Shown piece after piece: positions 17,318 through 20,302 of a DNA stretch of 22,360 nt. Origin of the DNA: a virus. Lineage: Duplodnaviria > Heunggongvirae > Uroviricota > Caudoviricetes. Below the pieces are notes generated by a model. The model was not told where the DNA came from. It worked only from the letters and a program-made list of their open reading frames with translations, and did not search any database. Both the position numbers and the translations under genes were made by a program. The number at the start of each line of letters is the position of its first letter. Within the stretch, counting starts at the first letter, position 1. The stretch spans positions 1 through 22,360 of IMG/VR virus record IMGVR_UViG_2737471845_000014. One strand, written 5' to 3'.

Positions 17318-17560
17318 ATGACTTTTACCCCTGAACAATTACGCAAACAGGCGCAGGAAATGCTGCGACAGGCGGAACAACTGGAAAAATCAGGCGTAAC
17401 AAAAGATGCCATTCGTAAGGATATGGTGCCAGCGCTCAGGGAACTGATGCAGGCGAAACACCGCGCACAAAAAGCAGTGGATGAGCTGGTGGATTGTGTG
17501 GCAGAGCTGGAAACCAAAGTTGGAAAGTTCGAAAAACTGGTGCAGGAGGTACTGCGCTGA
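17318..17560 (+). CDS. Hypothetical coiled-coil protein (80 aa)
   Basis: ATG at 17318 (or the TTG at 17303 used by the ORF track); stop overlaps the Q start (TGATG at 17558-17562). Confidence 0.5.
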   Translation: MTFTPEQLRKQAQEMLRQAEQLEKSGVTKDAIRKDMVPALRELMQAKHRAQKAVDELVDCVAELETKVGKFEKLVQEVLR

Positions 17561-17907
17561 TGCGTGATATGTACGAAGTTTTAGATCGTTGGGGGGCCTG
17601 GGCTGCAGCAGAAAATAGCGGTGTCGATTGGCAACCGATAGCAGCGGGCTTCAAGGGGCTTTTGCCACATGGCAAAAAGTCACGTCTCCAGTGTGATGAT
17701 GATGAAGGCATCATGATAGACGGTTGTGTGGCTCGGTTGCGAAAGTATAAACCAGAGGAATATGAGCTGCTCATAGCTCACTTTGTTATTGGTGTTTCTC
17801 TACGCTCAATCGCGAAGAAACGCAGGTGCTCAGATGGAACTATAAGAAAGGAGCTGCAAACTGCATTAGGCTTTATTGATGGATGTATATGCTTGATTCT
17901 ATCATAA
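17560..17907 (+). CDS. Late-gene antiterminator Q (QuuD/Q-like family)
   Basis: MRDMYEVLDRWGAWAA…IAAGFKGLL…RLQCDDDEGIMIDGCVARL…CSDGTI resembles E. coli prophage Quu antiterminators from memory; lies at the end of the early-right operon. Confidence 0.8.
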   Translation: MRDMYEVLDRWGAWAAAENSGVDWQPIAAGFKGLLPHGKKSRLQCDDDEGIMIDGCVARLRKYKPEEYELLIAHFVIGVSLRSIAKKRRCSDGTIRKELQTALGFIDGCICLILS

Positions 17908-17920
17908 GTTATGACTGTTA

Positions 17921-18307
17921 CTACTCGTTTGCTTGAGCTTTCGATTCGGCGTCAGATAAAGCATCAATACGAATATTTATGTTTTTTAATAGCTTATTGT
18001 CTAGATCGATAAGACATTGGTTGTAGTGCGCAATTTGGTCTGGTGTTAGGTTAGGGTTGGCCAGGCAGTTCGTGATGAATTTTCTGGCCGTTTTTATTTC
18101 CCTTTTCATTCTTACATCATTAAGCGTAGGCAAACCTATGTAAGCGATAAGAAGAATTACCACATGAGATAAGCCGACAGCAGCTCCAGGCGCCAATGAT
18201 TTGAAGAAGGCTAATTGAGGAAGCCAGTCAAAAAGGAAATTCAATCCCGCAGTGATAAGGGTGGTAAACCATGCCTGCATTGCCAGGTAGGATTTAGTGT
18301 TCGCCAT
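17921..18307 (-). CDS. Hypothetical membrane protein (128 aa), third gene of the opposite-strand operon
   Basis: Two predicted TM helices (AWFTTLITAGLNFLF, AAVGLSHVVILLIAYIGL) and a coiled-coil-like C-terminus; ATG directly follows the upstream gene's TGA (TGAATG at 18305-18310). Confidence 0.6.
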   Translation of the reverse strand: MANTKSYLAMQAWFTTLITAGLNFLFDWLPQLAFFKSLAPGAAVGLSHVVILLIAYIGLPTLNDVRMKREIKTARKFITNCLANPNLTPDQIAHYNQCLIDLDNKLLKNINIRIDALSDAESKAQANE

Positions 18308-18553
18308 TCACCTTCCTGCACTTGCTTCGTTGCGAGTTTTGAGTTCGCGTAGCAGTAGCGCCAACTCTTCTGCGTCATTTTCGTTTCTAACGCTGACTTT
18401 CCTTTTAGCGGTTCTGCCTTCAGGATCGGTGTAGGTTAGTTCAATATACGCATTCGGCTTTACCCAAACCAAGAACCTAAGCACAGCATATCTGACCGTC
18501 GCTGCGACAGCCATGAATACAGTGATGTAAAGCATAATGCTTAGGATTGACAT
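18308..18553 (-). CDS. Hypothetical small membrane protein (81 aa), second gene of the operon
   Basis: N-terminal TM helix (MSILSIMLYITVFMAVAATVRYAVLRFLVWV) plus a charged tail; 3-nt spacing to the upstream gene. Confidence 0.6.
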   Translation of the reverse strand: MSILSIMLYITVFMAVAATVRYAVLRFLVWVKPNAYIELTYTDPEGRTAKRKVSVRNENDAEELALLLRELKTRNEASAGR

Positions 18554-18556
18554 GAT

Positions 18557-19435
18557 TTAAAGTAGTTTCCTATCTGCCGCCGCTCTGTGGCGTATAACCT
18601 TAGTAATACTATAGCGTGGTTTAGACAGCGCGCCATTTGTTTCTTTTGTTGTTTCTGTCAGTTCTACAACAAAAAGATCACCCTTACAGAATGCTGCTTG
18701 GTTGTGTTCAACCCGTTCAAGAAAAGCCTCATCTTTCATAGATGCGCTAACTTCTTCGCCATTTGGCAGGATGATATCCCAGCTTTTGCCTTGCTTGAAT
18801 CGAACATTAGCAAAATGTACATTAGCTTGGCGTGTCGTTACGTGCGTTTTCTCGACAAAGGTGGATTTTGCAGTTTTAAAACTTACTGCTTCAGCTTGCG
18901 TCACCCTGACTACCTTATGCTTCTGCTGTGAAACTGAGAACGTGGATGGTTTTTCAGTCTGCAGGGGTTTATAGATTAATTTATCCAGTTCTTTTCGGAT
19001 GATTGGACTGGTTATTAATTTTTGAATGTCGTTACTGCATTTAACCTTCTCACCATCCACTTCGATTTCTGCTGTATCTTTTTGTTCATCGACGACAATG
19101 GAGCTGATTTTACGCCCTTTGAGCCATTCGATTATCCCGAGTACGCCACCTGCGGCAACTCCACCACCTGCAACGAGGCCAAGGGCGTTAATAGTTTTTA
19201 TGCTCCCCATCACAGCAACAAGCAAAGTAAATGAACCTTCTTTTGTTGCCTTGATGTTGACTTTCGGCTCTGCTGTTTCGCCATTAATTATTTTTTCGGC
19301 GTGTTCAATCAGGGCACTAAGAGAGGTTAAGGCTTCGCCTAATGTTTTCGCGTCGATCTGATTATCTGCGTATGCCTCTCCACCGTAGGCAATTTCGATT
19401 TCTGTTATTGGCATGTTTTCGAGTTGCTGCGTCAT
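18557..19435 (-). CDS. Hypothetical protein with a central glycine-rich TM segment (about 292 aa), first gene of the operon
   Basis: ATG at 19435 (GGA upstream; the ORF track's GTG at 19468 is the alternative); central hydrophobic stretch (LGLVAGGGVAAGGVLGIIEWL); C-terminal ~190-aa K/E/T-rich domain; no recognisable family. Confidence 0.6.
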   Translation of the reverse strand: MTQQLENMPITEIEIAYGGEAYADNQIDAKTLGEALTSLSALIEHAEKIINGETAEPKVNIKATKEGSFTLLVAVMGSIKTINALGLVAGGGVAAGGVLGIIEWLKGRKISSIVVDEQKDTAEIEVDGEKVKCSNDIQKLITSPIIRKELDKLIYKPLQTEKPSTFSVSQQKHKVVRVTQAEAVSFKTAKSTFVEKTHVTTRQANVHFANVRFKQGKSWDIILPNGEEVSASMKDEAFLERVEHNQAAFCKGDLFVVELTETTKETNGALSKPRYSITKVIRHRAAADRKLL

Positions 19436-19555
19436 CAAAAGCATCCTTTGCGCAAGAGAAATAGCCACAGGATACAGATAATTATGAAAAAATCACTAAC
19501 GCGTACGCAAAAACTATCTTAATCTGTTAAGAGTGGTCGCTTCGCCACACAACTT

Positions 19556-19581
19556 AAACCCGCATCAAGCGGGTTTTTTTG
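19556..19581 (+). terminator. Intrinsic terminator-like hairpin
   Basis: AAACCCGC-atcaa-GCGGGTTT followed by a T run (19574-19580); lies between the opposite-strand operon's upstream region and the tRNA promoter. Confidence 0.5.
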
Positions 19582-19662
19582 TGCCACTTATCTCGGATAG
19601 ACATGGTGAATGCGCTGGTGGAGGAGATAAGGGTGATTTTTAACCAGGTGATTTTTGAATGC

Positions 19663-19691
19663 TTGCAACATTGATTTCGTAACGTTATTAT
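19663..19691 (+). promoter_or_regulatory. Candidate strong sigma70 promoter for the tRNA cluster and late operon (pR'-like)
   Basis: TTGCAA (19663-19668), 17-bp spacer, TATTAT (19686-19691), about 10 nt upstream of the first tRNA. Confidence 0.45.
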
Positions 19692-19700
19692 CCTGCGCCC

Positions 19701-19776
19701 GGCCCTTTAGCTCAGTGGTGAGAGCGAGCGACTCATAATCGCCAGGTCGCTGGTTCAAATCCAGCAAGGGCCGCCA
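19701..19776 (+). tRNA. tRNA with CAU anticodon (Ile2/lysidine-type or Met)
   Basis: 76 nt: acceptor GGCCCTT/AAGGGCC, anticodon loop CTCATAA, T-loop TTCAAAT, encoded CCA; resembles E. coli ileX/ileY-type tRNA from memory. Confidence 0.8.
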
Positions 19777-19777
19777 A

Positions 19778-19854
19778 CCGCCACTAGCTCATCAGGAAAG
19801 AGCGTCAACCCTTTAAGTTGAGTGTGCGAGGTTCGAGTCCCCGGTGGCGGTCCA
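19778..19854 (+). tRNA. tRNA-like gene with atypical anticodon loop (apparent UUU, C at position 33)
   Basis: 77 nt: acceptor CCGCCAC/GTGGCGG, D-arm GCTC…GAGC, anticodon stem TCAAC/GTTGA with loop CCTTTAA, T-arm CGAGG-TTCGAGT-CCCCG with one A-C mismatch, encoded CCA. Confidence 0.5.
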
Positions 19855-19856
19855 GT

Positions 19857-19932
19857 GCCGACTTAGCTCAGTAGGTAGAGCAACTGACTTGTAATCAGTA
19901 GGTCACCAGTTCGATTCCGGTAGTCGGCACCA
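19857..19932 (+). tRNA. tRNA-Thr (UGU anticodon)
   Basis: 76 nt: acceptor GCCGACT/AGTCGGC, anticodon stem ACTGA/TCAGT with loop CTTGTAA, T-loop TTCGATT, discriminator A and CCA. Confidence 0.75.
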
Positions 19933-19935
19933 TAT

Positions 19936-20010
19936 GCGGGCATCGTATAATGGCTATTACCTCAGCCTTCCAAGCTGATGATGCGGGTTCGATTCCCGCT
20001 GCCCGCTCCA
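19936..20010 (+). tRNA. tRNA-Gly (UCC anticodon), glyT-like
   Basis: 75 nt: GCGGGCATCGTATAATGGCTATTACCTCAGCCTTCCAAGCTGATGATGCGGGTTCGATTCCCGCTGCCCGCTCCA, near-identical to remembered E. coli glyT; anticodon loop CTTCCAA. Confidence 0.85.
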
Positions 20011-20069
20011 GTCAGAGTCTTTCAGTCTGCGATGATGGGAAATCCCGGAGTGGCTGAAAGACGTTTAAG

Positions 20070-20142
20070 TTATGAATGATCGCCTTTTTTTGCAAAATTG
20101 CTGTGCAGAAATACTAACCTTCGGGCAGGCGATCATTCATAA
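20070..20142. repeat. Perfect 15-bp inverted repeat with 43-bp spacer
   Basis: TTATGAATGATCGCC (20070-20084) and its exact reverse complement GGCGATCATTCATAA (20128-20142); a smaller inverted repeat GTCTTTCAG/CTGAAAGAC lies at 20017-20062. Confidence 0.6.
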
Positions 20143-20218
20143 GCACTCTGCTTTTATTCCGATCAACTGTGAGTGGTTTGTTGGATAGAGTGCTTTCCTT
20201 TCTGTATATATCGTTTCG

Positions 20219-20240
20219 CCCGCTTTTGCGGTTTTTTCTT
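20219..20240 (+). terminator. Short intrinsic terminator-like hairpin upstream of the holin (tR'-like)
   Basis: CCGC-tttt-GCGG followed by TTTTTTCTTTT; only a 4-bp GC stem, so a weak call. Confidence 0.4.
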
Positions 20241-20302
20241 TTCAAATCCCTTTCATTTCTCAGTGTAAAACTACGCCATCCGTTATTTGCGGAGGTGAGG
20301 CT

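Follow-up and report, generated by a model that had tools for sequence, protein, structure and literature searches.

The late-control region of an Escherichia coli prophage was analyzed in a 22,360-nt stretch of DNA, hereafter the window, of the IMG/VR virus record IMGVR_UViG_2737471845_000014; all coordinates refer to this window. The exact region is present in 29 E. coli genomes, e.g., that of strain 537-20. The region is represented by a gene for the antiterminator Q, three genes of the opposite strand (the cargo), a conserved non-coding element located about 1.6 kb from Q, an intrinsic terminator, four tRNA genes, a structured leader and the lysis genes (Table 1). The element, a candidate late promoter region for this Q, and the cargo inserted between Q and the element are the main subjects here. 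Three minus-strand genes fill positions 17921–19435, and a strong terminator at 19556–19580 lies between Q and the promoter motif TTGCAA-17-TATTAT; both the genes and the terminator were omitted from the earlier note on this DNA.

The product of the gene Q matches Pfam PF06530 with 155.5 bits (cut-off 26, E 7e-46) over residues 1–112 of 115, and in PHROGs it matches phrog_79, 'anti-termination protein Q-like'. PF06530 and PF06323 are the Q21 and Q82 families of lambdoid antiterminators, respectively (Yin and Ebright, PMC9388147). Only a weak phmmer match to the solved Q21 structures 6P18 and 6JNX was obtained (E 0.002, residues 8–86), matches to profiles of extracytoplasmic function (ECF) sigma factors were below threshold, and identity to QuuD of the K-12 prophage DLP12 is 51%. 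An open reading frame (ORF) of 85 aa (17303–17560, plus strand; phrog_2565), common to Stx1a phages (Stx, Shiga toxin) and phage phiP27, overlaps the start codon of Q by its terminal ATGA, which suggests translational coupling.

Table 1. Features of the late-control region (window coordinates)
Feature	Position	Strand	Remarks
Q antiterminator gene	17560–17907	+	115 aa; Q21 family, Pfam PF06530
Cargo gene 3, 128 aa, hydrophobic N-terminal half	17921–18307	-	phrog_26468, E 7e-89
Cargo gene 2, 81 aa, hydrophobic N-terminus	18308–18553	-	phrog_27630, E 8e-57; unannotated in RefSeq
Cargo gene 1, 292 aa	18557–19435	-	RefSeq start 19435; ORF open to GTG at 19468
Putative leftward cargo promoter TTGCGT-18-CATAAT	19510–19481	-	-35 19510–19505, -10 19486–19481
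Q-linked conserved control element, putative PR'/Q-binding/pause region	19487–19536	+	Comparative sequence
A-tract of the element	19487–19492	+	
Invariant block ACGCGTACGCAAAA	19499–19512	+	14 bp
Three overlapping -10-like hexamers	AAAACT 19510–19515, TATCTT 19515–19520, TAATCT 19520–19525	+	
AAGAGT	19529–19534	+	Within invariant GTTAAGAGTGG, 19526–19536
Intrinsic terminator, putative tR'	19556–19580	+	8-bp stem, 5 GC pairs, 7 T
Probable dedicated tRNA promoter TTGCAA-17-TATTAT (late promoter of the earlier note)	19663–19691	+	9/12 consensus matches
tRNA-Ile2 (CAT, ileZ type, reads AUA)	19701–19776	+	ARAGORN calls Met-CAT; RefSeq tRNA-Ile
tRNA-Lys (TTT)	19778–19854	+	ARAGORN; Rfam 44.4 bits
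tRNA-Thr (TGT)	19857–19932	+	ARAGORN; Rfam 73.8 bits
tRNA-Gly (TCC)	19936–20010	+	ARAGORN; Rfam 64.9 bits
Structured non-coding leader	20011–20302	+	292 bp, no ORF longer than 45 aa
Holin, P21 S type, first late gene	20303–20518	+	Pfam PF04971, E 1.4e-35
YdfR	20523–20837	+	After holin
Lysozyme	20893–21426	+	After YdfR

Linkage of the element to Q

The DNA to the right of two unrelated cargos, namely, positions 19490–19585 of the window and 6296–6388 of the locus L002, is alike. The set sampled by Q comprised 80 IMG/VR loci with 86–100% relatives of the window Q. Of the 78 whose sequence extends more than 2 kb past Q, 77 carry the element there; in three loci it is separated from the Q stop by only 5 bp, and in the others the distance is about 1–3 kb. 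In the reverse direction, 119 stretches were selected by the sequence of the element alone, and in 93 of the 94 with at least 3.5 kb of upstream DNA this Q (66–100% identity) is encoded on the same strand 0.6–3.8 kb upstream. The arrangement of Q, gap and element is also present in the published phages Stx2a_1447/WGPS2 and cdtI.

There are two exceptions. The locus L061 carries this Q (88% identity), and the element was not found within 6 kb downstream; the locus L329 carries the element, and Q was not found within 4 kb upstream. Both may be cases of unusually large cargos or of rearrangements.

The element is the sole non-coding DNA common to loci with differing downstream genes. It is followed by tRNA and lysis genes in the window, stx1 in L002, essD in DLP12 of K-12, a methylase gene, ileZ-argN-argO and stx2 in Stx2a_1447, and a methylase gene and lysis genes in cdtI. 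In K-12 the order is quuD, the porin gene nmpC in the opposite orientation, the element and essD; each of the 76 IMG/VR loci that encode an identical QuuD and extend far enough downstream shows this order as well. Similar to the window, DLP12 (qsr') contains a counter-oriented cargo, nmpC with IS5, and an element with identical GTTAAGAGTGGTTACTTCG and a terminator, followed by a holin of the P21 type; it differs in that its cargo is a porin and not a defence candidate, tRNA genes are absent and the prophage is defective. The K-12 copy of the element (L085; NC_000913.3 577,195–577,274, between nmpC and essD) has a variant upstream block, TTTACGTACGTAAAAAA, versus CTAACGCGTACGCAAAAA in the window. 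A differing block next to a Q of 51% identity hints that the block is the Q-specific part. From the DLP12 element a short RNA missing from the annotation is predicted, with its end at the terminator located about 125 bp ahead of essD; a published K-12 data set of start sites or 3' ends gave no hit near 577.2 kb.

Mosaic boundaries of the region were determined by megablast against 50,697 phage records. Positions 17300–17882 match Stx1a phages with the same Q, and positions 19556–20600 match non-Stx coliphages at 97–98%; for the intervening 17883–19555 no megablast match was found, and the sensitive mode found partners for the last ~100 bp only. Behind the same Q, the Stx1a phage carries another trio of minus-strand genes, and stx1A comes next. 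In the phages sharing 19556–20600, the upstream gene encodes a 229-aa Q of PF06323 (Q82 family). In the Q82-family phages L001 and L003, a promoter-like sequence TTGCAA-17-TATATT overlaps the Q end and is followed by the same terminator hairpin, and identity with the window starts exactly at this hairpin. Since the promoter is swapped and homology extends from the hairpin onward, Q with its promoter-proximal DNA behaves as one exchangeable unit joined at the terminator tR', which places the Q-specific site of the window upstream of 19556.

Structure of the element and the probable site of Q action

Conservation of the element was scored on 83 unique variants drawn from 187 loci. The third hexamer (19520–19525) has the form TAnnnT in all 83 variants, its three inner bases varying freely, which is the pattern expected from recognition by sigma-70 region 2. 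AAGAGT is retained in 82 of 83 variants, and the second hexamer (19515–19520) is TAnnnT in only 66. Full-text literature search for the element sequence gave chance matches only.

RNA of positions 19526–19590 has a folding energy of -22.3 kcal/mol (z = -4.1). All 16 scored representatives contain a hairpin with a T-run 38–68 nt past the GTTAAG box; its stem sequence differs among them, and its energy is below -7 kcal/mol in 13.

The closest characterized system with a Q of the same Pfam family is that of phage 21, Q/PR'21/tR' (6P18, 6JNX; PMC6606751, bioRxiv 10.1101/651190). The repeats of its late promoter PR' carry C at -21 and -13, and the bubble spans +3 to +15 (PMC6606751). In the phage-21-type locus L088, whose Q and the 6P18 chain are identical wherever they align, the promoter TTGACA-17-AACACT contains two TGAGCA repeats in the spacer (-25 to -12), the start is at A, the pause element TAAGCT occupies +2 to +7 and a T-run is located near +50. 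The window has the same order of parts: the block precedes the -10-like hexamers, a -10-like sequence lies close to the putative start and a terminator follows about 50 nt further on; in phage-21-type loci, as in the window, tRNA genes follow tR'. Differences are also evident: Q21 consists of 162 aa versus 115 aa here and is distant (phmmer E 0.002), the window element has neither TGAGCA repeats nor a TTGACA -35, its site is located 1.6 kb from Q versus ~10 bp in phage 21, and a putative divergent promoter is embedded in it. The Q-binding element of the phage 21 type, two TGAGCA direct repeats 8 bp apart, is not represented, TGAGCA being absent from 19440–19560; these repeats define the specificity of phage 21 itself and not of the Q21 family, and the element has ACGCGTACGCAAAA instead.

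If TATCTT is taken as the -10, the distance to AAGAGT is 14 bp, as in phage 21, and the block occupies about -28 to -15, the place of the Q-binding elements in phage 21 and lambda. The three overlapping hexamers together with AAGAGT permit at least three registers of the start site.

A mosaic lambdoid late-control region, in which Q and its cognate promoter site are parted by inserted cargo and Q acts by ordinary antitermination in trans, is the explanation that we consider likely; its promoter, pause and binding assignments are all inferred from comparative sequence. The element would be the late promoter PR', with the Q-binding site in or beside ACGCGTACGCAAAA, the -10 within the overlapping hexamers at 19510–19525 and AAGAGT as the sigma-dependent pause element. 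In the lysogen, PR' would yield an RNA of ~50 nt stopped at tR'. Upon induction, Q produced from the early transcript would diffuse over 1.6 kb to the element and load onto the paused RNA polymerase, and the Q-modified polymerase would pass tR', the tRNA genes and the weak terminator to reach the holin and lysis genes. The tRNAs would also be made constitutively from the promoter at 19663–19691. The cargo would be transcribed leftward from TTGCGT-18-CATAAT; it should be expressed in the lysogen and apart from the late transcript because its -35 lies inside the invariant block.

Several observations weigh against this explanation. Many of the IMG/VR loci are related E. coli prophages, so that the locus counts are not fully independent, cargo types and element variants having been de-duplicated. 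The block ACGCGTACGCAAAA is not a direct repeat of the TGAGCA type, and its conservation could partly reflect its role as -35 of the leftward promoter. A good -35 is lacking for every candidate -10 hexamer (CTAACG, with 3/6 matches and an 18-bp spacer, comes closest), and the consensus promoter scan lists no promoter at the element; the same scan also fails on the experimentally defined PR' of phage 21, so that this failure is weak evidence against a promoter. TATCTT, which gives the phage 21 geometry, is the hexamer retained in only 66 of 83 variants, and with TAATCT as the -10 the start would be near 19532, with no -10-like pause element in the next 18 nt.

According to another explanation, the element is a mere boundary of the cargo site, in which a leftward promoter is combined with a rightward terminator that insulates the late genes from read-through of early transcription, and Q acts elsewhere or the prophage is Q-defective. 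The strong signal of the leftward promoter, the poor rightward -35 and the presence of the element in DLP12, a defective prophage, agree with it. Nevertheless, the element persists in loci lacking both cargo and leftward -10 (L005–L007), the plus-strand TAnnnT and AAGAGT are invariant without having any part in the leftward promoter, published phages that are inducible (Stx2a_WGPS2/1447, cdtI and Stx1a phages) carry the element, and no other conserved candidate Q site was detected between Q and the late genes. The boundary role alone is thus regarded as improbable.

The earlier note proposed TTGCAA-17-TATTAT as the Q-dependent late promoter, from which a Q-modified transcript beginning with the four tRNAs would start. 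The motif is located directly before the tRNA cluster and the lysis genes, as described, and with 9/12 matches it is the best consensus match near the late genes. A scan of 17300–20700 gave 4 sites versus 4.8 expected by chance, and the match alone is not significant; the motif is credible because of its conservation across contexts. TTGnnn-17-TATTAT, located 9 nt before the 5' end of tRNA-Ile2, is retained with a varying spacer sequence in six unrelated upstream contexts, including positions after tR' (the window and Q82-family phages), right after the methylase stop (Stx2a_1447 and two other groups), phage-21-type loci and L034. This distribution argues strongly against a Q target: the motif occurs at 97–98% identity behind a Q of PF06323 and behind methylase genes in Stx2a phages, and therefore cannot carry a Q-specific site, and it is absent from other loci with the same Q (L002, L085). 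Furthermore, it lies downstream, and not upstream, of the strong terminator, and since the tRNA starts 9 nt past TATTAT, a sigma-dependent pause element would fall inside the tRNA. Differential RNA sequencing (dRNA-seq) of the Sakai Stx2a phage assigned a primary start between tR' and stx2AB to transcription of the tRNAs (PMC7547250). The motif is hence very unlikely to be the Q-dependent promoter and is probably the own promoter of the tRNA genes. Judging by these homologous loci, the tRNAs are probably made independently of Q and additionally within the read-through late transcript. A transcript covering tRNA and lysis genes under Q control, as the earlier note suggested, would consequently be retained as a product of Q-modified read-through, but not one starting at TTGCAA-17-TATTAT, and exclusive dependence of the tRNAs on Q probably does not hold.

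A late promoter right after Q (TTGATG-18-TATCAT, 17876–17905), producing a transcript antisense through 1.6 kb of cargo, has a 9/12 match overlapping the Q end and the canonical place of PR' in lambda, phage 21 and phage 82, but it can be practically dismissed, since homology among Q carriers ends at 17882, inside this motif, and gives way to cargo-specific sequence, nothing besides the distal element is conserved after Q, the element itself occupies the post-Q position in cargo-less loci, and no terminator is present within 100 nt. In this respect the earlier note was right to place the late promoter away from Q; the distance from the Q stop (17907) to its motif is 1755 bp, in agreement with the ~1.7 kb given there.

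A RefSeq coding sequence of 36 aa named 'antiterminator' (WP_086259018.1; 19533–19643, plus strand) spans the putative pause region and the tR' hairpin. It has no family match in PHROGs or NCBIfam and, as it spans the terminator, is probably an annotation artefact rather than a real gene.

The cargo and its insertion hotspot

The 292-aa protein of the window cargo matches PDLC05015 of the PADLOC candidate system PDC-S42 (E 3e-53) and NCBIfam NF053583, 'LAPAL motif-containing putative phage structural protein' (225 bits, cut-off 60). It has 33 hypothetical relatives in Enterobacterales, and its AlphaFold2 model (predicted local distance difference test, pLDDT, 83) gave only partial OB-fold matches in PDB. 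The context suits the NCBIfam name poorly and argues against a structural role, since the gene is located outside the structural region on the opposite strand, has its own putative promoter and recurs in a non-phage element. The 128-aa gene stays beside the 292-aa gene in the diverged copies L069 and L079, synteny of both small hydrophobic proteins (81 and 128 aa) is kept in diverged copies, and partners of 80–85 aa are present in L407–L411. The order of the three genes recurs in an Enterobacter integrative element, by resolvase and VapE genes, and in a Serratia prophage, by tail-fibre genes; this recurrence points to a mobile three-gene module. The window cargo is an accessory module, probably an anti-phage one.

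For the analysis of the gap, 76 loci were used for cargo clusters and 187 loci for flanks. The 76 loci contain about 20 unrelated cargo clusters of 1.0–3.0 kb with GC content of 0.31–0.46 and nearly all genes on the minus strand; 60 distinct cargo-proximal flanks were found among the 187 loci. PADLOC matches were obtained in 7 of the ~20 clusters (raw count), the other clusters having no match. They are represented by PD-Lambda-5 A and B; an NsnA/PD-T4-2-like protein with a cytosine methyltransferase; a TIR protein with a caspase-like protein; PDC-M53A in two clusters; PDC-S33; and PDC-S42 in the window and its diverged relatives. Other cargos encode NA37-family or ion-channel-like proteins or nothing recognisable, and DLP12 of K-12 carries nmpC; about half of the cargo types have no known function. 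The gap between Q and the element is a hotspot, with conserved flanks and many unrelated inserts at one position. Displacement of the presumed Q site by cargo is the rule for the whole Q subfamily and forms a hotspot of the defence type. In the literature searched (lambdoid hotspots, DLP12, Q21/stx2) no description of a hotspot between Q and PR' was found, which does not prove its absence.

The minus strand of the invariant block reads TTGCGT. A minus-strand TAnnnT is located 17 bp (41 flanks) or 18 bp (9 flanks) from it in 50 of the 60 distinct flanks, the rate of TAnnnT at other offsets being about 3%, and cargo-less loci (e.g., L005) lack the leftward -10. Most likely, then, transcription of the cargo depends on a sigma-70 promoter of its own, divergent from PR'; for the window, the predicted leftward start is near 19474, with a 39-nt leader before the RefSeq start at 19435. 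Only 13 bp, containing no terminator, separate the stops of Q (17907) and of the cargo (17921), so that an early transcript continuing past Q would be antisense to the cargo.

Overlap of the cargo -35 with the presumed Q site suggests that activation of late genes could be coupled to cargo shut-off. As a speculative and rather unlikely extension, ACGCGTACGCAAAA may be a shared operator, at which Q loads polymerase at PR' and at the same time covers the cargo -35 TTGCGT. If so, defence cargo would be shut off at late lytic commitment, helped by the antisense early transcription from Q, and the gap between Q and PR' would be a purpose-built docking site giving inserted defence genes a programme that is on in the lysogen and off in the lytic cycle; such a docking site would explain why about 20 unrelated cargo types share almost always the same orientation.

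Similar to the defence hotspots of P2-like prophages and P4 satellites (PMC9122126; bioRxiv 10.1101/2022.05.12.491691), the gap has conserved flanks and variable low-GC content with known and candidate anti-phage systems. Unlike them, it belongs to another phage type and is located between an antiterminator gene and its presumed promoter site, and its cargo is almost always counter-oriented, with a putative promoter half-embedded in the conserved flank. In the 'noncontiguous operon' tha/ith of Staphylococcus aureus prophages (PMC11087260), lytic transcription antisense to the defence gene turns immunity off on induction. The window resembles tha/ith in geometry, since the early transcript from Q would be antisense to the cargo, and this geometry suggests a possible effect on the cargo; unlike in tha/ith, no overlapping inhibitor gene is present.

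The likely late promoter is thereby placed at the element for a whole Q21-type subfamily that includes Stx1a phages, Stx2a_WGPS2/1447 phages, cdtI and DLP12 of K-12, and expression of toxin and lysis genes in those phages depends on the late promoter site. Some Stx promoter regions were reported to have 'lacked the pR' site' (PMC6266700); a primer of that work contains the 18-mer CTTGGATTTATTGATGGT, which also occurs in the terminal part of the L002-type Q gene. Two searchable anchors, the 14-bp block and the 3' end of Q, are available that bracket the hotspot, a place to seek new anti-phage genes. The best consensus promoter of a late region need not be the target of Q, and in the window this match is probably the promoter of the tRNA genes. 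The displacement and hotspot found throughout the subfamily, as well as the sharing of the invariant block by the cargo promoter and the presumed Q site, are beyond routine annotation.

tRNA genes, leader and lysis genes

The four tRNA genes of the late leader, reported in the earlier note, were found upstream of the lysis genes and score 44–74 bits in Rfam; Rfam search of 17400–20600 at permissive E-values gave these four tRNAs only, and no family was found for the short PR' RNA or the 292-nt leader. tRNA-Ile2 is identical at 75 of 76 positions to ileZ of phage Stx2a_1447. Genes of the window are rich in the codons AUA and ACA and, with the exception of the lysis genes, in GGA, AUA reaching 8–18 per 1000 codons; average AUA usage in E. 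coli is about 4–5 per 1000.

The late leader of Stx2a phages (933W, Sakai Sp5) has the order PR', tR', tRNA promoter, ileZ argN argO and stx2AB. As in the window, the ileZ-type tRNA-Ile2 is located downstream of tR' and has its own promoter (dRNA-seq, PMC7547250), and the constitutive PR' ends in a short terminated RNA (StxS), as is proposed for the window. The partner tRNAs are Lys, Thr and Gly in the window versus Arg and Arg in the Stx2a leader, and the window lacks stx. Sp5 has a different Q and a distance from PR' to tR' of 258 nt versus ~50 nt predicted in the window. In some relatives the four-tRNA cluster of the window, or ileZ-argN-argO, is located ~1.2–1.6 kb past tR'; in L034 and L063 the distance from the element is about 1.25 kb, and in Stx2a_1447 (L286, 5080–6138) a small ORF and a DNA methylase gene occupy the intervening DNA. 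The part of the late leader beyond tR' thus constitutes another cargo site, in this case a co-oriented one.

The structured non-coding DNA of about 290 bp described between the tRNAs and the holin is the leader at 20011–20302. It contains three consecutive hairpins, including a perfect 16-bp inverted repeat (20070–20085/20127–20142), and folds at -95.4 kcal/mol, z = -4.7 versus shuffles. The inverted repeats are followed by a weak terminator-like hairpin with a T-run at ~20218–20243, read from the sequence and under the scan threshold, and then by the lysis cassette from 20303, in the order that had been noted. The leader is 97–98% identical in several non-Stx coliphages and could be a processing site, an attenuation site or a small RNA. 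The genes stxAB were not found between the tRNAs and the lysis genes, and no toxin gene is present, as the earlier note stated. Its suggestion of past loss or exchange of cargo found no support as regards a toxin: the spacer contains no remnant of stx or other cargo, and positions 19556–20600 are 97–98% identical in non-Stx phages.

The genes after 20303 also include a spanin-like ORF. The lysis genes are followed by an HNH endonuclease-like ORF (21930–22280, plus strand); in a near-identical RefSeq locus, the HNH ORF precedes the gene of a P27-family small terminase, the usual pairing of HNH and terminase genes.

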